In this document: in pieces, positions 4,691 through 60,071 of the stretch
Layout: each line of letters begins with the position of its first letter
Position numbering within the stretch: the stretch's first letter is position 1
Assembly: GCA_016183235.1 (NCBI GenBank)
Contig: JACPFA010000026.1
Location: forward strand, 33,284-97,283
Reading direction: 5' to 3'
Source: Deltaproteobacteria bacterium
Lineage (GTDB): Bacteria; UBA10199; DSSB01; JACPFA01
DNA: 64,000 nt
Program-made: the position numbers and the translations under genes
Notes under the pieces: model-generated
What the model was told of the DNA's origin: nothing
Databases searched by the model: none
What the model saw: only the letters and a program-made list of their open reading frames with translations

Positions 4691-4931
4691 GTCTTTTCGA
4701 GGTAGGGAGAGGCCAAGGGAGAGCCTTTTACCAGGAGGGCGGCCTATGATAGTTTCTGTCATTGCGAACTTAAGCGGGTGAAGCAATCTCTTCTGCCTAA
4801 GCGATGGGATTGCCACGCTCGCTATCATGGGTCCCCGCCTTCGCGGGGATGACACCGCTCGCAATGACAGAGGCCCTCATAGGCCGACCGGGCGCGGGCT
4901 CTCCATTGGCCTCTCCCTACCTCGAAAAGAC
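4691..4931. repeat. three-level nested palindrome (outer stem, then A-type element, then GC hairpin)
   Basis: The outer arms gtcttttcgaggtagggagaggccaagggagagcc / ggctctccattggcctctccctacctcgaaaagac enclose ggcctatga/tcataggcc. These enclose the ctgtcattgcga...tcgcaatgacag element (4756-4870), which in turn encloses atcatgggtccccgccttcgcggggatgacac (4824-4855). Confidence 0.85.
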
Positions 4932-6962: not shown

Positions 6963-7077
6963 CTGTCATTGCGAACCCAGCAGGGTGAAGCAATCTCTTC
7001 TGTTTAAGCGGTGAGATTGCCACGCTCGCTATCATGGGTCCCCGCCTTCGCGGGGATGACACCGCTCGCAATGACAG
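6963..7077. repeat. A-type composite palindromic element with a GC hairpin at its apex
   Basis: Near-identical to 4756-4870 (ctgtcattgcgaaccc...gattgccacgctcgct-atcatgggtccccgccttcgcggggatgacac-cgctcgcaatgacag). It ends 2 nt from the xseA stop codon. Confidence 0.9.
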
Positions 7078-8346: not shown

Positions 8347-8490
8347 GTGTCATTGAGAAGGAGCGTCTGTCATTGCGAGGCCTGTGTGGGCGGCCTTCTG
8401 TCATTGCGAACCCAGCGGGGTGAAGCAATCTCTTCTGCCTAAGCGGTGGGATTGCCACGCTCGCCAACGGGGCTCGCTCGCAATGACAGA
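8347..8490. repeat. cluster of A-type palindromic elements (short-apex variant)
   Basis: Three gtcattg(c/a)ga units. The 8396-8490 copy has the apex aacgggg where other copies carry a 32-nt hairpin. It supplies the last ~15 codons and the stop of the 8439..9965 ORF. Confidence 0.85.
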
Positions 8491-9965
8491 AGTACCCCAA
8501 TCGGCAGCAACAAACTCAACAACCCCAAATTAAGCCCTTGGCTACTATGTGCCGGGCTCAAACTCATTGTGCATTTCAAAAAGGGTTCGTCTGCTTTGGG
8601 CTCAACCCCATCATCAACTGCGGGGTCTCCCTGCCCTTCGGCAATACCAGGGTCTATCATCGGGGCAGGCGCAGGCGGGGCCTCACCCGGCGTCATATCA
8701 CAGGCATTACCCGCGGCATCTTGGTCATAATCGAGTTGATCGGGGTTTGCCACATTGACGCAATTGTCTGCGTCATCTTTAACCCCGTCGCCGTCTAAAT
8801 CATCGGGCACTTTACTAAAATCTTGATCACAGGCATCGCCCAAACCATCGGCATCTGAATCGATTTGTTCGATATTCGGCTCTAACGGGCAATTATCGAT
8901 TTCATTGGCAAAGCTGTCGCCGTCTTCATCAGCTGGTTTGTAATCTGGGTCGCAAACATTGCCTAAACCATTCTTGTTGCCATCGGCTTGATCGGCATTG
9001 GGCTCCATGGGGCAATTGTCGACCCCATTGGGAATGCCATCACCATCGTCATCTTTTGACGCACTGGCAGGCGGTTCTGACGCATCATCGCTCGCCCCAC
9101 CATTATTATCTGCATTGCCGTTGTTAGCCCCACCGTTATTTGCAGCATCTGCTGCATCCGCAATCAAACCACCATAACCCCAGGCTTCATCCCTGGCTTC
9201 AACCACGGGGTCGATCGGTACTCCATAATCGACCACCACAATCGTGGTATAGCCTTCTGCATCAGCAGCTTCTTCTTCAATCACCGGTTCTTCTTCATCA
9301 CTTGGGGGATCAAAACTTGCTTCATCGTTGATTGCACCTTCATCTTCATCGGGAGGTGGTGGGGGGGGAGGTGGTGGTGGTTCTTGCGGCAATTTCCCTT
9401 CGGAATTTAATTGAACCTTTTTTCCGGAGGCATCTTCAACCCATACGTTTTCAAACTTATTGCTGGGCATGGTACACAAGGCTTTCTTAATATCTTTAGC
9501 TTTCACCGTAAAATTTTTGAAGAGGCTATCGGTGATGTTGATATTAAAAACACACTGGCCTTCGGGTGGGTTGACGTTCAACCCATTGAGCACCACCGAT
9601 TGAGCCTTGGATCCATCAAAAATCAGATTCTTGCCATCACCATTGAGATCATTCTGAACTTCCTGACCATAGTCATTATAAGACACAGGCCCCACCTCTA
9701 TGTTCAAACTTAAAATTGGAATGGGAATATTAAAAGATTTACCAGCCGCAAAATCGATTCTTTCCCGGCATTCTCGAGGTTGGCCATTGGCCCCATTAAA
9801 AACATTGATTTTTCGGCATAAGGATATGACCTTGCCAGGATCGCAAGTTTTGGTGCTCACCACCGAGGCATCGTTGGCATCGGTGCAAAAATCTTCTGCC
9901 TGGGCGGCCTGGGCCAGGAATAAATGAAGCAGCACGGCCCCCAAGATACCCACACCCCTTTTCAT
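8439..9965 (-). CDS. secreted thrombospondin type-3 repeat (Ca-binding) protein with a C-terminal Cys + TM tag
   Basis: The likely start is ATG 9965 (MKRGVGILGAVLLHLFLAQAAQA, a signal peptide), in an ATGA overlap with the upstream gene. It has an 11-Pro run, an acidic linker and three DNCPxxxNxxQxDxDxDGxGDxCD repeats. The C-terminus reads KCTMSLSP...LLSLLLPIGVLLSL. Confidence 0.8.
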   Translation of the reverse strand: MKRGVGILGAVLLHLFLAQAAQAEDFCTDANDASVVSTKTCDPGKVISLCRKINVFNGANGQPRECRERIDFAAGKSFNIPIPILSLNIEVGPVSYNDYGQEVQNDLNGDGKNLIFDGSKAQSVVLNGLNVNPPEGQCVFNINITDSLFKNFTVKAKDIKKALCTMPSNKFENVWVEDASGKKVQLNSEGKLPQEPPPPPPPPPPDEDEGAINDEASFDPPSDEEEPVIEEEAADAEGYTTIVVVDYGVPIDPVVEARDEAWGYGGLIADAADAANNGGANNGNADNNGGASDDASEPPASASKDDDGDGIPNGVDNCPMEPNADQADGNKNGLGNVCDPDYKPADEDGDSFANEIDNCPLEPNIEQIDSDADGLGDACDQDFSKVPDDLDGDGVKDDADNCVNVANPDQLDYDQDAAGNACDMTPGEAPPAPAPMIDPGIAEGQGDPAVDDGVEPKADEPFLKCTMSLSPAHSSQGLNLGLLSLLLPIGVLLSLRASPVGERGNPTA

Positions 9966-17966: not shown

Positions 17967-18119
17967 GGGGGGACCTCTAAAAAGGGCGTGAGATGCAAGG
18001 CGCCCGCAAAGGCGCGACCGGAGCGTATATGGAAATACGTGAGGATCGCGGCTTTGCGGGCAATCCTTCGCTTACGCTCTGGACAGGCTCTGCAGATGGG
18101 TCGTTTTTAGAGGTCCCCC
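17967..18119. repeat. D-type structured palindromic element, copy 1
   Basis: Terminal inverted repeats GGGGGACCTCTAAAAA / TTTTTAGAGGTCCCCC and an internal 15-bp stem (18002-18016 with 18047-18061). It is homologous to 56903-57028 and abuts the stop codon at 18120. Confidence 0.85.
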
Positions 18120-18596
18120 TTAATGAGTGGCATTTCTTTCTAACTGCTCCAAACGAGAATAAAGGTTCAACACATCTTGTTTGAGCGTAGTAATCTCTCC
18201 TTGTAACTCCCCTTTGGTAACATAATTTTTTTCAATGCGCTTGAGTTGCTCGTTGGCAAATAGATATTCCTGGCGCAGATCTTCGAATTTTTTGTAAAGA
18301 TCTTCAAAATGTTCATTCATTTCTTGGCGCAGGTCTCCCACCTCTTTTTTGATGATACCATGGATGTCAGGTTTAATAACTTTGTGATAATATTCTTCAA
18401 ATTGAATTAGATTCCCGGGCCGAATCACCTTCTGATAGTACTCACCAAACTGCTCAACATTAGCGGGCCGAATCACCTTTTGATAATATTCACTAAACTG
18501 TTCTAAATTAGCGGGCCGAATCACCTTTTGATAAAACTTCTCCAGCTGCGAAAGAGTAAGGGGGTTTTCTGTTTCTGTCTTTTTCTTTGGAGGCAT
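18120..18596 (-). CDS. coiled-coil protein with 15-aa tandem repeats
   Basis: 158 aa with four tandem copies of YYQKVIRPANxEQFxE (45-nt period, 18369-18545), followed by a heptad-like helical C-terminus. Confidence 0.6.
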   Translation of the reverse strand: MPPKKKTETENPLTLSQLEKFYQKVIRPANLEQFSEYYQKVIRPANVEQFGEYYQKVIRPGNLIQFEEYYHKVIKPDIHGIIKKEVGDLRQEMNEHFEDLYKKFEDLRQEYLFANEQLKRIEKNYVTKGELQGEITTLKQDVLNLYSRLEQLERNATH

Positions 18597-28858: not shown

Positions 28859-29125
28859 AATTTCATATCATTACAAAGCACATGTTTTCTGTCATTGCGA
28901 ACGATGTCATCCCCGCGAAGTATGCCCTCGACCCCGATCGGGGGGCGGGGACCCATGATACCGAGCGTGGCAATCCGACCAAAGGTCGTCCTGAGGCTTT
29001 AGCCGAAGGATCTCTTACAAACGAAGAGATCCCTCGCAAAACCTCGGGACAATGCTTCGCATTGGATTGCTTCACCCTGCTGGGTTCGCAATGACAGAGA
29101 ATAAAAGGCTCGCAATGACAAAAGA
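28859..29125. repeat. 267-bp mosaic of A-, GC-hairpin- and C-type repeat modules between two ATPase genes
   Basis: It contains ctgtcattgcgaac, gtcatccccgcg...cggggacccatgat, cgagcgtggcaatcc, the C module gtcctgaggctttagccgaaggatctcttacaaacgaagagatccctcgcaaaacctcgggac, and two tcgcaatgaca termini. Confidence 0.9.
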
Positions 29126-30127
29126 TTAATAATTCAGACATCGTAAATTCTGCCCTTCTCCTACGTACTTTTCGCTTGGCACTTTTAAGTGACAAGCCGC
29201 GCTCACATTAAAGCAGCGGTCGGCAAAACGACAGCCCTCTGGTAATTCTGCCAAATCAGGGACCTTGCCAGGAATTGACGCAAGAGTTCCGGTTTTTTGA
29301 CGCAAGGTGGGGATGGAATGCAGTAGCCCTAGCGTGTAGGGATGTTTGGGTAAACTAAGTAGCCGCCCTACGGGAGCCTGCTCCACCACCATGCCGGCGT
29401 ACATCACCAACACTTCATCACAAATTTGCGAAACCACCCCTAAATCGTGGGTGATGAGGATGACCGCCATGCCCATCTCGGCAACCAATTCACGAATTAA
29501 TTGTAAAATTTGCGCTTGCACCGTTACATCCAGCGCGGTGGTGGGTTCATCGGCAATTAAAATATCGGGGTGGCAAGACAAGGCCATGGCGATCATCACC
29601 CGTTGCCGCATGCCACCGCTCATTTGGTGAGGGTAGTCATCAATGCGACGTTCGGGGTCAGGGATTTTAACCTTGGTTAACATTTCAATCGCCAACTCGC
29701 GGGCCCGCCCTTTATTGACCTTTTGATGCAAAATAATGGCCTCCATAATTTGTTGGCCCACCGTATAAACCGGGTTGAGGCTGGTCATGGGTTCTTGAAA
29801 GATCATGGCGATCTTGGCCCCTCGCACCTCGCACATTTTTTCTTCGTTGAGTTTCAATAAATCAACCGGCAAGGCAGGCTGCTCTTCTTGGCTGGTAAAT
29901 AAAAAGACTTCTCCAGATTCAATCTTACCCGGGGCATCAACCAGCCGCATTAAAGATAAACTAGTGACCGTCTTGCCACAGCCCGATTCGCCCACAATCC
30001 CCAAAATCTGCCCCCGCCGTAGGTCAAAACTCACGTGGTCGACCGCCACGAGTTTTTTGCCTTTAAGCGTAAAGGTCGTAACCAGGTCTTTGACTTTTAA
30101 CAATAATGGATCCGCAGCTTTTTTCAT
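29126..30127 (-). CDS. oligopeptide/dipeptide ABC transporter ATP-binding protein (OppD/DppD type)
   Basis: 333 aa with Walker [10 protein letters not shown], signature MSGGMRQR and Walker B ILIADEP. Confidence 0.9.
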
Positions 30128-43677: not shown

Positions 43678-44973
43678 TTATCCAAAAAACCGCAGGGCTT
43701 CCTTTAACTCAGGTTTTCCTTGTGCATAAACTTCCAGAGAAGTTCCTTGCTGCACGGCTTCCCAGGCTTGTTGCAGGCTTTTCGCCCCCGCACTCACCCC
43801 CATGGGATGGTTAAAGACCCCACGCCCCGAAATAAAACCAAAATCAACGTGGCCAATTTTTTCATACACGCGAGGCAGGCTACCCGCCCAATCGCTGCCA
43901 CCGGGGATGGGAAGGCTAGCAGAAATCTGCCCCAGGGGGGCCAAACAGGCTGCCACGTTGGCCAAGACTTCTTCGTCGGTATTGTGCATGCGCTCGCCAA
44001 AACCGGAAAGGCCAATCATGTCACAGCCGGCCAAACGCAAGAGTTTGGTCCACACCACGGTATGCACCCCAAAATACTGCATGCGCGAGCTAATGGCCTC
44101 ACCGGCAAAATGACCCATTATAGGTAGTTTAGAAATTTTGCGCAAACTCACCACCGACGAAATGCCCATGGTGAAAGGATTCACCATCACGGCATTACTT
44201 CCGCTTGCTTCTACTTTTTGGTAATTCGCCAATAATTCGTCGGCTTCTCCACTGATATTCATGATCATCATTTTCTTATCGCCAGTTTCTTTTTCAGCAG
44301 CCTGCCGCCTATGCCCACATTGCTTGGCCCGCCGCTCGAGGGGCGAATTTACCTGATCAGCCAACATTTCATCGTCTTTGGTAATGTCTAACCCCCCCAA
44401 CCAGGCTTCATAAGCCCGCTGGGCAAAATCCCCCACGGGCAAGCCTAAGTTGGGCTTTACCACACCAATAAAAAAAGGCCTCCCCTTCACGCCCAAACTT
44501 TGACGCAAGCCCGCTAGCCCAAATTGGGGGCCCACAAAATTTTGCAAAAAGGTATCGGGAAGTTCCAGATTCATCAATTTAATAGTGGTAATGCCCGGAC
44601 AATAAAAGGGGCCCTCGCCAGCTAGCGCGGTTAAAAGATTAGCGAGCCTTGGCCCAAAATTAATATGGGGGTGAGCCACCCTCACCCGGCAGCGAGAATA
44701 GCGTTCTGAAATCCTGGCCGCCTCTGGGTATAAAGGCTTGCTCGATTCCCCCACCACTTCTAGATTCAAAACAAAGGCCCCGTGAATTTTGCGAAAATCT
44801 TCTTTCACCCCCGGGCGTTTCCACTGCACAGTACTTTGCTCACAAGCCAAGCTCGCCGCCGCAAGCTGTGGCTCAACTGTGCATTCAAAAAAATAATCGG
44901 CCAGCACATATTTTTCTAAATCAAGCTGTTCGGGATTAATAAAAAAGCCTTCGGCCTCTTGGAGGGTCAACAT
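43678..44973 (-). CDS. RuBisCO large-subunit-like protein (form IV RLP), not a carboxylase
   Basis: 431 aa. GRPFFIGVVKPNLGL...AWLGGLDITKDDEML aligns to RuBisCO GCTIKPKLGL...GGLDFTKDDEN. K175, K201, D203 and E204 are kept. K177 is N, and the H294/R295, H327 and K334 positions are substituted in my manual alignment. Confidence 0.8.
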   Translation of the reverse strand: MLTLQEAEGFFINPEQLDLEKYVLADYFFECTVEPQLAAASLACEQSTVQWKRPGVKEDFRKIHGAFVLNLEVVGESSKPLYPEAARISERYSRCRVRVAHPHINFGPRLANLLTALAGEGPFYCPGITTIKLMNLELPDTFLQNFVGPQFGLAGLRQSLGVKGRPFFIGVVKPNLGLPVGDFAQRAYEAWLGGLDITKDDEMLADQVNSPLERRAKQCGHRRQAAEKETGDKKMMIMNISGEADELLANYQKVEASGSNAVMVNPFTMGISSVVSLRKISKLPIMGHFAGEAISSRMQYFGVHTVVWTKLLRLAGCDMIGLSGFGERMHNTDEEVLANVAACLAPLGQISASLPIPGGSDWAGSLPRVYEKIGHVDFGFISGRGVFNHPMGVSAGAKSLQQAWEAVQQGTSLEVYAQGKPELKEALRFFG

Positions 44974-51406: not shown

Positions 51407-53998
51407 CTAAAACCCAAATTGCACCATCGTAATGCCTTGGGCCCCTTTTGCGGCTACAAAATTTTCATATTTCCCCAAAATAGCGGCGCCTAGAATTTCT
51501 TTGCCACTTTTAAATTGGGCAACCCGCGAAGGGCTTTTGGGGTTTGAAATATTATAAACCGCCAACCCCTCAACCCCGGTGGGAACAAAAAGAAAATTGG
51601 CATCTGGCGTAAGGGCTAGGGGTAGAACCTTCCATTCAGGGCCCGCTCGGTAGGCCGGCACACCACTCACGGTGCCCACTTCGATCATTTTATAGCCATC
51701 TTGTACCGAATAGAGTTTAATCAAAATTTCTTGGGTGGTCGGTCGCAAAAAGGCCCCCACTAACAAGTTGCCGTCGGCCGATAACCAAACACCCTTGGCG
51801 ATAAAATCGGCCAACACCAATCGCACCCTCGATTTGGGTCTGCCCTGCAATAAATCGACACAAGTGATCCCCTCGGCCCCGGTTGCCACATAGGCATAGG
51901 CACCACTCGGGGCCAAAACAACATCGTAGGCCTCAGTTAGAGGATAGGTCATGGTCATCGGGGTGCTGCTGGGCACTAACTCCGGAGTTTTAGTCGTTGA
52001 TGGGGGTTCTTTTTTCACAACGGGTTTTTCAACTTTTGTTGGTCCCGGCGGCCAAGGTTTCACGACTAAAGCCCCGCCGGGATTAGAGGGCATGGCGCTG
52101 ATGGCCAAATAATTTTTGCCAGCGATTTGAACCGCGTCAAACCCGGTAGGATTGAGCCCCGTATTGTCCCACGTAAAAATTTCTGTTTTCACCTTGGCCT
52201 TGACACTATCGGCATCAAAGAGCCAAAGTTTGAGCCCCGTGGGCTGCACATCGGCCAACAACCCCCAAAAATGCTGCTGCGTCATTTTTTTTGCAGGAAA
52301 CATTTGACGCGCAAAGGGCACGGGAAGATTCTCCACCACTTTAAGGTCAGGGATGGCTATTAAATTGAGAGCGCCCCCAACATTGTCGCCCACCAAAAGT
52401 AGTTTTTCATTCAAGCCCATCACCCAGCTAGCGTTTGCCAAACCTGGGATCATGAGCTTTTGCGCCACTTGGTAGTTTTTGCCATCGGCCTTAGGGGCAA
52501 AGCTAAGCACCTTTAACCCACCCCCATCCGCCACCACGGTAACGGGTTCAGCTTTAATCTTTCCGGTTTCTAAATCACTTAATTTTGTAAAACCAATGCC
52601 TTCTATCCCCTGCAAGGCAATTTCGGCACGGGTATTGAGATCAACTAAACGAAGACTGACTTGATTTTGATGACGCACCACCACCAACCCTTTGTTGGCA
52701 CCGGGAATAAGATGAAAGGCCTCCACTGGGGGATTGTCTTTGAGTAAAATCCTGCCCTCATCGCGTAGTTTCCCCGCTTCTTCAATGGCAAATAAGCGAA
52801 CCCCATAATCTTGCCGCCCCTGCCCGGTTCGATCCGTTCCCACCGTAACAATCAAAAAAACCTTGGGTTTGCCACTCACGTTGAGCTCGACCGTTTCCAT
52901 ATGAGTAATCGAACCACCCGAAGACAGCGAGGCCAGTAACAACGAATGATTAAAATCAAACAGATGAATGTTAGTTTCATCAGCCAAATAAAGATAGCGA
53001 TCATATTGCGACAAATGCACGGCTTGCGTTGACGCGCTGGGCATTTCTTTGCTTAACTTTGGAATTTTAGGGTCTTCTAAATCCCATAGTTTAACCCCTT
53101 GTGGGTCTAAGGTGTAGGCATAGGGTTTCCCCAATAAATAGAAAGAATGAAATTCATAAACCTCAGCCGGAAGCGCTTCTAGAGCTTGTTTCACGAGGAT
53201 GTTATTCGCCGCTAACTGAACAAATTCCCATTTACCCTGCACCGATTGCACATAGGCAAAAAATTGTTGGTGAGTATCGCGTAGCCCATAAATCTTTTTA
53301 ATAAAATCATCGCTAAGGCTTGAGGCCATTTTTGCAAAATTCGCGTCATAAAGTTGCAGTTCATTACCTTGCCCTACTAAATAGTTTTCTCCTAAATGGG
53401 CAACTGCATCAATGCTGCCACCCAGCGCCCCCTTTTCTTCTAATTTAGTGGCAAAAACTTGTAACTTAAGATCGGCACTGCTTTCATTGGCTCCATCCGA
53501 AACGGTCAAACGTAAAACGAAGGTTGTATCTTGAGTAAGCTCGCCCACCGTAAGCGTAGGGGTGAGGCTATTGCGCGGTTCAATCTTGATTGCCTCCCCT
53601 GGCCCAACTACTAATTCCCAAAAATAATTGAGGGCCTTACCCGTGCTCGATTGAACCGACACCCCCTCCAACGTTAAACGCACGCCTTCTGCCAAGGCCT
53701 TTTCAGGAGGCAAGGTTATTTTAATAAAAGGCGATGCTTGGGTGGCGGTTAAGGGTTGAGTTTCGGTAGGGGTTGATTCAGGGGTTAGGCCAAAAAGATC
53801 GGCCTTTTGAGTTTCTGAAAAAAGCCCGCTGGGTTTTGACTCAGCGAGATTTCTTTTGGGAGGGAGATTGGGTTTAGTGATTTGCGTTTTGGATGGCCTT
53901 GGTTTTTTATCAAAAAATTTCTTTTTGACCGTGTACCCACCCACGGCGGCTACGATGATCAAAATCGCTACCAAAAGAAGTGTTTTTTTGGACCGCAT
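51407..53998 (-). CDS. membrane-anchored protein with a PKD-like Ig domain and LVIVD-type beta-propeller repeats
   Basis: 863 aa with an N-terminal TM (LLLVAILIIVAAVGGY), a Pro/Thr linker and an Ig-like segment (YFWELVVGPGE...FVLRLTVSDGANES). Repeated units include GVKLWDLEDPKIPKL and GLAVYNISNPKSPSRV. Confidence 0.55.
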   Translation of the reverse strand: MRSKKTLLLVAILIIVAAVGGYTVKKKFFDKKPRPSKTQITKPNLPPKRNLAESKPSGLFSETQKADLFGLTPESTPTETQPLTATQASPFIKITLPPEKALAEGVRLTLEGVSVQSSTGKALNYFWELVVGPGEAIKIEPRNSLTPTLTVGELTQDTTFVLRLTVSDGANESSADLKLQVFATKLEEKGALGGSIDAVAHLGENYLVGQGNELQLYDANFAKMASSLSDDFIKKIYGLRDTHQQFFAYVQSVQGKWEFVQLAANNILVKQALEALPAEVYEFHSFYLLGKPYAYTLDPQGVKLWDLEDPKIPKLSKEMPSASTQAVHLSQYDRYLYLADETNIHLFDFNHSLLLASLSSGGSITHMETVELNVSGKPKVFLIVTVGTDRTGQGRQDYGVRLFAIEEAGKLRDEGRILLKDNPPVEAFHLIPGANKGLVVVRHQNQVSLRLVDLNTRAEIALQGIEGIGFTKLSDLETGKIKAEPVTVVADGGGLKVLSFAPKADGKNYQVAQKLMIPGLANASWVMGLNEKLLLVGDNVGGALNLIAIPDLKVVENLPVPFARQMFPAKKMTQQHFWGLLADVQPTGLKLWLFDADSVKAKVKTEIFTWDNTGLNPTGFDAVQIAGKNYLAISAMPSNPGGALVVKPWPPGPTKVEKPVVKKEPPSTTKTPELVPSSTPMTMTYPLTEAYDVVLAPSGAYAYVATGAEGITCVDLLQGRPKSRVRLVLADFIAKGVWLSADGNLLVGAFLRPTTQEILIKLYSVQDGYKMIEVGTVSGVPAYRAGPEWKVLPLALTPDANFLFVPTGVEGLAVYNISNPKSPSRVAQFKSGKEILGAAILGKYENFVAAKGAQGITMVQFGF

Positions 53999-54041
53999 AG
54001 GCGTTGGATTAAAACATGCCTGTTAAAATAAGAAAAGAGAA

Positions 54042-54473
54042 TTACTTACTAGTGCAGTAATCCCTCAGTCTTAGGGGCTTAGCTTTCAGAAACCCTTTGT
54101 GCGAGAGCGACGAGTCATGAGCGCTTAAAAAACATATGGTTTGTAGAAGCCTGTCCTGAGCCTTAGCGAAGGATCTCCTACGAACAAGGAGATCCCTCGT
54201 AAAACCTCGGGACAAGCTTCTAAACAAACCAAGAGTGCAAGCATCGGCTAAAATTTTAATTTGATCTTCTGCCACCTCTAAAACCCCACCCTCAACATCA
54301 AACTGCGTCATAGTTGAACCTTGACGCAAGGTCAAAACCCCTACACCCAAGCCTGACACCATGGTGGTATGGCCCGGCAATATCTCAAATTCGCCCAGTA
54401 ACCCCGGCGCTACGATGCTATCGTAATCACCTGATAAGATTTTTGCCCCGGGGGTTACAAATTCTATGTGCAT
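54042..54473 (-). CDS. atpC: ATP synthase F1 epsilon subunit whose C-terminal domain is replaced by repeat-derived sequence
   Basis: The start is ATG 54473 (MHIEFVTPGAKIL...). Residues 1-78 form a normal epsilon beta-sandwich (...VLEVAEDQIKILADA). Residues ~80-143 are read through a C-type repeat (54146-54220) and unrelated sequence. Confidence 0.8.
   Translation of the reverse strand: MHIEFVTPGAKILSGDYDSIVAPGLLGEFEILPGHTTMVSGLGVGVLTLRQGSTMTQFDVEGGVLEVAEDQIKILADACTLGLFRSLSRGFTRDLLVRRRSFAKAQDRLLQTICFLSAHDSSLSHKGFLKAKPLRLRDYCTSK
54146..54220. repeat. C-type palindromic repeat module inside the atpC ORF
   Basis: gaagcctgtcctgagccttagcgaaggatctcctacgaacaaggagatccctcgtaaaacctcgggacaagcttc. A close copy lies at ~28985-29058, and related pieces at 4570-4620 and 62725-62785. 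Confidence 0.85.
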
Positions 54474-54489
54474 AATAAATTCTTCCATG

Positions 54490-54532
54490 CGAGATTGCCA
54501 CGCTCGCCGACGAGGCTCGCTCGCAATGACAA
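54490..54532. repeat. A-type repeat half-element (short-apex variant) between atpD and atpC
   Basis: gagattgccacgctcgccgacgaggctcgctcgcaatgacaat. Confidence 0.8.
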
Positions 54533-54534
54533 TA

Positions 54535-56869
<2,335 letters not shown>

Positions 56870-56902
56870 ATTTTTATCTTACCTTTAACGACTCTATATT
56901 GT

Positions 56903-57028
56903 GGAGGCCTCGAAAAAGGGCCCAGATGCAAGGTGCCTGCAAAATCGCGCCCGGGGCGTATGTGCAAATACGTGAGGATCGCGATTTTGCAGGCAACGCC
57001 GCAGATGGGTCGTTTTTAGAGGCCTCCT
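56903..57028. repeat. D-type structured palindromic element, copy 2 (between atpA and atpG)
   Basis: Termini GGAGGCCTCGAAAAA / TTTTTAGAGGCCTCC and a perfect 15-bp internal stem (56935-56949 with 56980-56994). It is homologous to 17967-18119 and ends 2 nt from the atpA stop. Confidence 0.85.
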
Positions 57029-57029
57029 T

Positions 57030-58551: not shown

Positions 58552-59091
58552 CTAAAGCGCTACTTTTTCGACATTCGAACGTAGTTTGTTGAGCTGGGCT
58601 TTAAGGCTACCATCAAAAACTTGATCGCCAATTTTGATCATAATGCCCCCTAACAACGAAGCATCTTGCTCTTGTTTTAACAAAACTTTTTTCTTTAAAA
58701 TCTTTTCTAAGCGCAGGCCTAAATCACCCACCTGCGTTGCCATGGGCAAATGGACCATGGCCCGCACCCGCCCCAAATGCTCATCGGCCATGTTGCGATA
58801 TTCCCGCACCACCGAACTAAACACATAACTGCGTTTTCTTTCTAAAAGAATCCGCAATAAATTCCCCACCGCTCGGCTTAATCCCACCTGTTGAATGATC
58901 TTCTCTAAAACTTCTTTTTTCTCTCGAATCGAAATGGCCGGATTGCCTAACATGAGAGTTAGCGGGGCCTTGGGTAAGAAAGTCCCGTTCAAACTTTCTA
59001 ATTCGGCTAAAATTTCTTCTACTTGCGATGCGGTGATTGCAATCCTAAGCAGGGCCTTACCATAACGTTTGCCTAAAGAACCTTCGATCAT
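58552..59091 (-). CDS. atpH: ATP synthase F1 delta (OSCP) subunit
   Basis: 179 aa with an OSCP-like helical N-domain and GGIMIKIGDQVFDGSLKAQL near the C-terminus. It overlaps atpF by 4 nt. Confidence 0.9.
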   Translation of the reverse strand: MIEGSLGKRYGKALLRIAITASQVEEILAELESLNGTFLPKAPLTLMLGNPAISIREKKEVLEKIIQQVGLSRAVGNLLRILLERKRSYVFSSVVREYRNMADEHLGRVRAMVHLPMATQVGDLGLRLEKILKKKVLLKQEQDASLLGGIMIKIGDQVFDGSLKAQLNKLRSNVEKVAL

Positions 59092-60071
59092 GCCAATTTC
59101 TCCATCTTACCCAGGTATTCTTGCACTATACGGTTTTGATCTTCGGCTTGAATATTTTGGCGAATGTGCGTGCTTGCTAATTCAATGGCGATCTGGATAC
59201 CCTCTTCTTTGAGAACCTCTTTGGCCTTACGAACTTCTTGTTGAATCAGCTTGTGGCTCTCGGCTAACATGCGCTCTGATTGCATCTGCGCATCATTTAA
59301 GATTTTAGCCTTTTCCAATTCTCCCTCTTGGCGGATCGTTTCCACCAAACTTTTGATCTCGTCTTCAATACGCTTCAATTTTATTTCAACCGCTTGATAT
59401 TTTCCCAAGGCTTCGTCTCGTTTTTGCGCGGCGTCTTGTAGTTTATCTTTAAGTTGGGTTGCCCTTTCTCGAAAAAAATCTTTGACCGGCTTTTTAAGGA
59501 GAAAAAATAGTACGACTAAAAGTAAAGCAAAGTTGCCCAGGGCATACCATAGGGTGGTGGGGATGCCTTCGGTCGTATGGCCTTCAGCAGCCATAACGCT
59601 TGCGCTCGCCAACCAAAACAATAGGGTCACGGGCCAGAAATGAAAGGTCTTTTCTAAAAATTTTTGGGCAATGCTTTTTGATAAATCTTTAGCCAAACGG
59701 TGCAGCTCTACCCTGGCATGCTCGGTTTCGGTTTGAATAACTTTGCGCTGGTCCTGTAGTTGTTCATCGATTTTGCCACGCACTTGTTGAAATTTCTCCA
59801 TGGCTAAACGATTGGCCTCTCGCTTTAATTCTTCTTTAACCAAAACGCCTTTTAATTTAGCTGCATTGATTTTTTGAACATAGTCGGCGAACAATTTTTC
59901 AGTTTCACCATGCATGGCTTCAGCGGCCGCAACCCGTTCCACGGTGAGATTTTTACGCATGGCCAAGAGGGCTAAAACAGGCTTAAAGATTAAAAAATGA
60001 ACGATCAAGACCACCAAAAGAAAGATCCCAGACATTAAGATAAAACTGAGGTCCGGAACAAGATTTTCCAT
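59088..60071 (-). CDS. atpF: ATP synthase Fo subunit b'-b in-frame fusion
   Basis: One 327-aa ORF. Residues 1-141 are a complete b'-like subunit (TM plus coiled coil ending SIAQKFLEK). Residues ~148-327 are a complete b-like subunit (WPVTLLFWLASASVMA/AEGH..., a second TM, then a coiled coil). No stop codon lies between them. Confidence 0.8.
   Translation of the reverse strand: MENLVPDLSFILMSGIFLLVVLIVHFLIFKPVLALLAMRKNLTVERVAAAEAMHGETEKLFADYVQKINAAKLKGVLVKEELKREANRLAMEKFQQVRGKIDEQLQDQRKVIQTETEHARVELHRLAKDLSKSIAQKFLEKTFHFWPVTLLFWLASASVMAAEGHTTEGIPTTLWYALGNFALLLVVLFFLLKKPVKDFFRERATQLKDKLQDAAQKRDEALGKYQAVEIKLKRIEDEIKSLVETIRQEGELEKAKILNDAQMQSERMLAESHKLIQQEVRKAKEVLKEEGIQIAIELASTHIRQNIQAEDQNRIVQEYLGKMEKLA

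Follow-up and report, generated by a model that had tools for sequence, protein, structure and literature searches.

The N-terminal beta-sandwich of the epsilon subunit couples the gamma subunit to the c-ring in the ATP synthase, and the C-terminal domain (CTD), a helix-turn-helix, confers autoinhibition on the enzyme. Truncated, non-inhibitory epsilon subunits are present in many alpha-proteobacteria (PMC9317440), and naturally short proteins of this type are represented in the NCBIfam collection by NF009983 (PRK13449), an 88-position epsilon model. Palindromic repeats form the second body of knowledge that is relevant here. MITEs and foldback elements such as Correia/NEMIS, ERIC, BOX and RUP enter or adjoin the ends of genes (reviewed in PMC10969869), and in the account that this review gives of the work of Ogata et al. 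(2000), Rickettsia palindromic elements (RPE) are selfish DNA residing in frame within protein-coding genes.

The DNA segment studied here, a stretch of 64,000 nucleotides (hereafter the window) from the metagenome-assembled genome (MAG) of a groundwater 'Deltaproteobacteria bacterium', carries an atpC gene to which both of these subjects pertain. The main features of its reading frame are:

54042-54473, minus strand: atpC ORF, F1 epsilon subunit with a 61-codon insert (143 aa, starting with MHIEF).
54234-54473, minus strand: epsilon N-terminal beta-sandwich, codons 1-80 (from Pfam, NCBIfam, a custom HMM, AF2 and dN/dS).
54042-54047, minus strand: AAG TAA, the last codon and stop of the ancestral gene, with which the extended ORF ends as well (AAGTAA also stands at the uninterrupted site of the sister loci L091-L094).

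The atpC ORF lies directly 3' of atpD (54535-55959) and is the last gene of an atpF-H-A-G-D-C cluster, as judged from Pfam matches and ORF order; the cluster is bordered by parAB and mnmG. Since atpB and atpE are not adjacent to it, the atp operon is split. Upstream of atpH, a 327-aa ORF (59088-60071, minus strand) contains two stretches that match ATP-synt_B, and these matches raise the possibility of a b/b' subunit in fused or tandem form. The public record of the epsilon gene calls for caution in its use: NCBI lists the product (MBI2336363.1; locus tag HYU97_06340) as a 148-aa 'hypothetical protein' that begins at an upstream ATG (MEEFIM..., window 54042-54488) absent from the sister taxa, and does not name it an ATP synthase epsilon subunit.

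The only Pfam match of the 143-aa ORF is to PF02823, the epsilon beta-sandwich (residues 1-78, E = 3.4e-20); PF00401, the model of the helix-turn-helix CTD with its I(L)DxxRA region, did not match the ORF even at E <= 10. The alignments of all 20 NCBIfam epsilon models are confined to about residues 1-80. A custom full-length HMM, built from 62 epsilon proteins of neighbouring lineages that are encoded beside related beta subunits, is covered by the ORF at positions 1-80 of 132 and nowhere beyond, and a CTD-only HMM gave zero matches in the six frames of 53950-54480. AF2 predicts an all-beta fold for residues 1-80 with a pLDDT of about 90. The ORF thus lacks the C-terminal helix-turn-helix of a two-domain regulatory epsilon, and codons 1-80 are its sole conserved and functional part. 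The original prediction, which was derived from the window alone, had described a normal beta-sandwich up to about residue 78, the absence of a CTD from the ORF and from any frame downstream of it, and a stop at 54042 together with the translation leading up to it; on all of these points it was right.

A protein search recovered one close homologue (P0001) of 86 aa, which is identical to the window protein through ...ADACTL and then ends with VIPQS. Its 90% cluster holds three more proteins: the 148-aa NCBI entry (P0152), an 82-aa protein with the C-terminus ...ADSCTLK (P0153) and an 83-aa protein (P0154). The latter two are encoded on L091-L094, four independent assemblies (from ENA, JGI and NCBI) with the same gene order as the window: atpD, atpC and the gene for an 863-aa protein. 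Because the window's beta subunit is 98.5% and its 863-aa neighbour 92.5% identical to the L091 counterparts, these loci represent close sister taxa. DNA alignment revealed that the insertion is absent from all four, where TGCACTCTT is directly followed by AAGTAA; the site in L091-L093 reads ...TGCACTCTT joined to AAGTAATT.... The filled site in the window reads ...TGCACTCTT, a segment of 174 nt beginning with G and ending with C, TGCACTAGT, and then the same AAGTAATT..., whose AAGTAA ends the ORF. The insertion point in atpC therefore follows codon 81 and precedes the last codon. In total, the insertion amounts to 183 nt, or 61 codons, is in frame and stop-free, and includes a 9-bp repeat that resembles a target-site duplication; since 183 nt is a multiple of three and holds no in-frame stop, the ORF runs on to the ancestral stop. 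When these 183 nt (the insert plus one copy of the repeat) are removed in silico, an 82-aa epsilon with the very same AAG-TAA stop is restored.

The uninterrupted alleles end within about 10 codons of the beta-sandwich, and 43 nt separate atpC from the next gene in L091-L094, the same 43 nt that are found in the window, so that neither side of the insertion offers space for a CTD. As the insertion-free sister alleles encode 82 or 83 aa and are followed by this short spacer, the CTD was gone before the element arrived. A comparison of codons 1-81 with those of L091 yielded a dN/dS of 0.10 at a dS of 0.38 (0.04 for atpD); the short epsilon gene is under purifying selection and functional by the usual test.

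We consider it highly probable (roughly 0.85) that an epsilon gene natively devoid of a CTD was struck by a MITE-like insertion one codon before its stop, and that the additional tail is a by-product of this event. On this reading, a clade of uncultivated groundwater 'Deltaproteobacteria' natively possesses an 82-aa epsilon that consists of the beta-sandwich only. A small, non-autonomous, palindromic MITE-like element would have entered atpC between codon 81 and the last codon, bringing about an arrangement in which terminal inverted repeats (31 nt or more) are combined with a 9-bp duplication-like repeat and a nested 'C-type' hairpin. In this strain's common form, the protein would stop after 86 aa at a TAG within the left inverted repeat; in the form represented by the window, the left arm is missing, and translation would read through the hairpin and a spacer to AAG-TAA, giving 143 aa. 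The 61-residue tail would accordingly be neither a replacement for the CTD nor the cause of its loss. By analogy with other CTD-less lineages, the enzyme of this clade is probably regulated without epsilon-CTD autoinhibition, for instance through MgADP inhibition. That this autoinhibition should be absent follows from established knowledge of epsilon function, and it is reasonable to attribute its absence to the whole clade and not to the insertion.

The inserted DNA has the following parts:

54057-54230, minus strand: inserted MITE-like palindromic element of 174 nt, without a left terminal inverted repeat (absent from L091-L094).
54231-54239, minus strand: left copy of the target-site-duplication-like direct repeat, TGCACTCTT, encoding C79, T80 and L81 (present at the empty site of L091-L094).
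54048-54056, minus strand: TGCACTAGT, the second (right) copy of this direct repeat, which agrees with the left one at 7/9 positions, including each of the first 6 nt.
54137-54231, minus strand: long imperfect hairpin in the element (RNA fold, dG -61 kcal/mol), which holds the 'C-type' core at 54144-54222.
54124-54136, minus strand: U-rich tract, AUAUGUUUUUUAA, directly 3' of the hairpin (from sequence and fold).
54057-54087, minus strand: putative right terminal inverted repeat, at least 31 nt long, ...GAAAGCTAAGCCCCTAAGACTGAGGGATTAC (in sister strains, the element begins on the left with the inverted copy of this sequence).

The palindromic repeat through which the ORF had originally been proposed to read is real: its arms of 36 nt (54144-54179 and 54187-54222) are 81% complementary within the hairpin at 54137-54231, and a 231-nt region folds with a z of -6.0 relative to shuffled sequences. 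A second copy of the 'C-type' core, 90% identical, is located at 29004-29052 in an intergenic repeat cluster; the window thus contains two copies of the nested core and a single copy of the outer terminal repeat. The GTAA at the start of the repeat and a duplication of 8-9 bp presumably recall the IS66 family. A match of at least 7 of 9 positions between the direct repeats at this fixed offset has a probability of 0.0013, but with 2 of 9 positions mismatched, the repeat does not prove a clean transposition footprint. The four empty loci with the 7/9 repeat, the small size and the lack of a transposase (the only ORFs on the 174 nt are the read-through frame and one of 39 aa) agree with a MITE. 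Terminal inverted repeats of at least 31 nt are deduced from the comparison of L001/L002 with L003-L006 (see below), and of these the window copy retains the right arm only. Taken together, these features point to a transpositional origin of the insert and establish full MITE status only in part. An exact-pattern scan of JGI metagenome contigs for the element's 29-mer gave zero matches, and when the alignment of P0001 and P0003 served as a profile to scan metagenome contigs, it led to a single distant locus of no further use. The hairpin and the U-tract inside the extended ORF look like a terminator and may act as one. A simple terminator scan, which accepts loops of 3-8 nt only, did not flag the long hairpin, and an Rfam scan of the whole window yielded no match at the gathering score.

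The left end of the element differs between the window and its closest relatives. Two Logan contigs (L001/L002), which derive from five sequencing runs, are 100% identical to the window through codon 81 (...TGCACTCTTG). Past this junction, which directly follows a TG, they read TAATCCCTCAGTCTTAGGGGCTTAGCTTT, where the contig ends; a stop is reached five codons on. The left junction is hence TGCACTCTTG joined to TAATCCCTCAG (also written TGCACTCTTG joined to TAATCCCTCAGTC) in the Logan contigs, and TGCACTCTTG joined to GTTTGTTTAGAAGC (also written CTCTTG joined to GTTTGTTTAG) in the window. In the Logan strains, epsilon stops after 86 aa (...ACTLVIPQS) at a TAG located in the left inverted repeat, and ILADACTLVIPQS would be its C-terminal peptide. 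The terminal 29-mer of L001/L002 is the exact reverse complement of window positions 54058-54086, the distal end of the insert beside the right repeat copy. The window-type distal junction recurs in L003-L006, the complete set of four contigs with an identical 863-aa neighbour, all of which start at AAAGC...GGGATTAC followed by TGCACTAGT; one of these (L006) shares run SRR12113419 with L001. Since proximal junctions (A-X) and distal junctions (X'-B) coexist, the element probably possesses terminal inverted repeats in the Logan samples. All four contigs with the 863-aa neighbour break exactly at the inverted repeat, and the full-length element, for which a size of about 200-260 bp would be expected, is seen in none of the Logan contigs. 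Contigs that stop 29 nt into a repeat would be expected from an assembly graph with k = 31, which we take to be the value used by Logan, when the repeat measures at least 31 nt.

These data lend weight to the view that the 143-aa frame is not the real gene of the population, that the complete foldback element specifies an 86-aa epsilon, and that the junction in the window is an artefact of assembly or curation, or else a rare variant that bypasses the inverted repeat and was favoured by the assembler for this reason. We regard this as a serious possibility, although we would put it somewhat below an even chance. The A-X junction in contigs from five runs and the breakage of the four neighbour contigs at the inverted repeat speak for it, and so does the distribution of the products: an exact look-up found the 143-aa protein on record in no other assembly and the 148-aa protein only in the NCBI MAG itself, and the left junction of the window was found in no other assembly. 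Against it, a de Bruijn assembler should be unable to create the junction of CTCTTG and GTTTGTTTAG without reads that contain it, and long palindromes commonly lose one arm in vivo. The missing left arm thus reflects either a real deletion or an assembly problem, and a deletion is the explanation adopted in our preferred reading of a CTD-less gene with a MITE-like insertion.

The properties of the 61-residue tail bear on the question of whether the insert has become part of a protein. The tail is basic in composition (9 R, 4 K, 4 D and 0 E), and the C-terminal peptides expected of the 143-aa form are ...ACTLGLFR/SLSR. The 183-nt insert has no stop in the atpC frame and four and five stops in the other two frames; only 4.7% of its shuffles are stop-free, and the chance that an insert would combine an in-frame length with the absence of stops is roughly 1/3 x 0.05. 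This could hint at selection, and it is also the reason why the ORF was flagged originally. One may accordingly envision that the insert is a translated peptide module, tolerated or exapted in the manner of the Rickettsia palindromic elements, which provides a new basic tail at the position of the CTD; in-frame fusions of both MITEs and RPEs have been documented (PMC10969869). We deem this proposal improbable. The open frame of exactly 61 codons was the very condition under which the finding was ascertained. The near-identical strains produce a tail-less protein of 86 aa, a search of 5.8 billion proteins gave no homologue of the tail peptide, and AF2 assigns residues 81-143 a pLDDT of 32-59 with one low-confidence helix, which may have been induced by rows of the alignment that contain a CTD. 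Furthermore, the hairpin of -61 kcal/mol and its U-tract lie within the ORF and may shorten the transcript; if they do terminate transcription, the 143-aa frame would be a non-stop message, and we doubt that the 143-aa protein is a working subunit because of this possible terminator inside the long frame. There is likewise little likelihood that the tail is translated and assembled into F1Fo as a partly helical basic extension, an RPE-like exaptation caught at a polymorphic stage, in which the 143-aa form would possibly alternate with the 86-aa form through loss of a palindrome arm. The new role that the original prediction had considered for the basic tail is weakened by the tail-less 86-aa proteins and the low pLDDT values, and a tail without function is what we would expect for a by-product of the insertion.

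The central claim of the original prediction, namely that the CTD had been lost to the repeat, does not hold. It supposes that the repeat entered a full-length atpC gene and thereby displaced or destroyed the CTD, and it can draw on the fact that the CTD is missing, that the ORF departs from its homologues exactly where the repeat-bearing segment starts, and that the next relative still has a CTD-like tail. This relative (P0003, encoded on L088) shares 58% identity with the window in epsilon and 85.7% in the beta subunit, and its downstream gene, in the same order, encodes 858 aa. Its epsilon is 125 aa long, and the tail is helical in character and aligns with the full-length epsilon model through position 115, although it is below detection by the Pfam CTD model. 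Yet the empty alleles of L091-L094 encode 82 or 83 aa with 43 nt to the next gene, the same short gene, with its stop, reappears once the insert is excised, and a CTD signal is found in no frame on either side of the insert. DNA alignment of the window's tail region with the CTD-coding region of L088 revealed no residual similarity. We therefore regard destruction of the CTD by the repeat as very improbable. Alignment to close relatives, as the original prediction had called for, thus supports a short CTD-less gene and speaks against the repeat as its cause. Because L088 retains a helical tail, the loss of the CTD can be dated: it predates the split between the window and L091, and the domain was lost on the branch leading to their common ancestor.

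An invertible 173-nt switch by which epsilon would alternate between two C-termini, and which would predict a junction of ...GCTTCTAAACAAAC with CTGCACTAG, is hardly credible and was rejected: the 29 nt past the L001/L002 junction are indeed the exact reverse complement of the distal 29 nt of the window, but run SRR12113419 has the window-type distal X'-B junction (L006) in addition to the proximal A-X junction, an A-X...X'-B arrangement within one run that denotes an inverted repeat, and the junctions share just 1 nt of inverted homology.

Epsilon subunits without a CTD are common among neighbouring lineages. Of 74 loci with an epsilon gene detectable by tblastn, a set that consists mostly of GTDB loci recovered via the beta subunit, 5 are CTD-less, and many of the best 150 matches in a library of 1.84 billion proteins measure 77-89 aa. 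A scan of the GTDB representatives with the beta subunit, among which the window's own genome is not included, gave a best match of 83% identity. In three further epsilon homologues (P0005, P0007 and P0018), a normal N-domain precedes a low-complexity tail that is not a CTD and varies in length; tails produced by read-through or frameshift may recur in the annotation of CTD-less epsilons.

In comparison with the sister taxon, the atp operon of the window has two further repeat insertions, one between atpD and atpC and the other between atpA and atpG. The atpD-atpC spacer is filled by a palindromic repeat (54493-54540) of the TGTCATTGCGAGCGAGCC...GGCGAGCGTGGCAATC family, other members of which are found at 8450-8497 (the best, 88% identical), and at 4808-4855 and 7015-7062 (60%). 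This repeat is absent from L091-L093, which have an 11-nt spacer, and present in L094 and in L001/L002; it is a second presence/absence polymorphism, independent of the insertion at the 3' end of atpC. The atpA-atpG spacer (56870-57029) is 160 nt long, with an insertion of about 150 nt that includes a repeat of 84 nt (56913-56996), of which the window has another copy, 81% identical, at 17980-18063, and atpG follows about 8 nt past atpA in L091/L092. The genome from which the window stems is being colonised by small palindromic repeats. The intergenic cluster at 28900-29130, in which at least three different repeat modules, including the 'C-type' core at 29004-29052, are adjacent to each other, suggests nested or mosaic repeat arrays. 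An intragenic tandem repeat of three head-to-tail 48-nt units, 71-76% identical, is present at 18375-18563 in the ORF 18120-18596.

The 863-aa protein encoded directly 3' of atpC (51407-53998, minus strand) has a weak PKD-like match as its sole domain match. It is conserved in L088 (4438-7014; beta subunits 86% identical), where the protein is 31% identical, and is a stable atp-linked neighbour. At some distance from the operon, a 431-aa ORF (43678-44973, minus strand) is matched by PF00016, the catalytic domain of the RuBisCO large chain (E = 1e-50), and could, to judge from this match, be a RuBisCO-like protein.

What appeared to be the destruction of a regulatory domain by selfish DNA can, in our view, be resolved into two separate and ordinary events: the lineage lost the CTD first, and a MITE-like element was inserted afterwards. 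That purifying selection maintains an 82-aa epsilon in an uncultivated groundwater lineage supports the notion that the CTD is dispensable in some bacteria. Moreover, the clean pair of empty and filled sites illustrates how palindromic repeats remodel the ends of genes, in this case at three spacers of a single operon.

Among the known systems, the naturally short epsilons (NF009983 / PRK13449 and their alpha-proteobacterial representatives; PMC9317440) provide the closest parallel to the protein. The window clade resembles them in possessing only a beta-sandwich (82-86 aa), in the position of the gene at the end of the atp operon, in the purifying selection on the N-domain and in the expected loss of CTD autoinhibition. 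However, the window epsilon scores 50.3 bits against NF009983, for which the curated cut-off is 106, and the protein thus lies outside this equivalog; because the match is so far below the cut-off, the loss of the CTD in the window clade is independent of that in the NF009983 lineage. The loss is also recent enough for L088, a relative at the family level, to have retained a helical tail in shortened form.

The insert itself invites comparison with three types of palindromic DNA. Like REP/BIME-type palindromes and terminator-like repeats (e.g., SPRITE), it carries a long GC-rich hairpin with a U-tract at the end of an operon, and in the same operon repeats of other types fill the spacers between atpA and atpG and between atpD and atpC; the sister taxa separate atpC from the next gene by 43 nt without a hairpin, and a role as terminator is putative. 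With the Rickettsia palindromic elements (Ogata et al. 2000, as presented in PMC10969869), it shares its palindromic nature and its in-frame, stop-free position in a housekeeping gene, where it can be read as an extra peptide. In contrast to these elements, the in-frame state is confined to the derivative without the left arm, since the intact element carries a stop; the insertion lies one codon from the stop codon and not within a fold; and a conserved element-encoded peptide across copies was not found, given that the second copy of the core is intergenic and the tail has no homologue. From the MITEs (PMC10969869), the element differs by its imperfect direct repeat (7/9). In common with them, it is small (at least 174 nt) and devoid of a transposase, has a strong hairpin flanked by a short direct repeat and, to judge from the sister strains, probably inverted repeats of 31 nt or more at its termini, varies in presence and absence between sister taxa, and alters the C-terminus of the encoded protein through its position at the 3' end of the gene.
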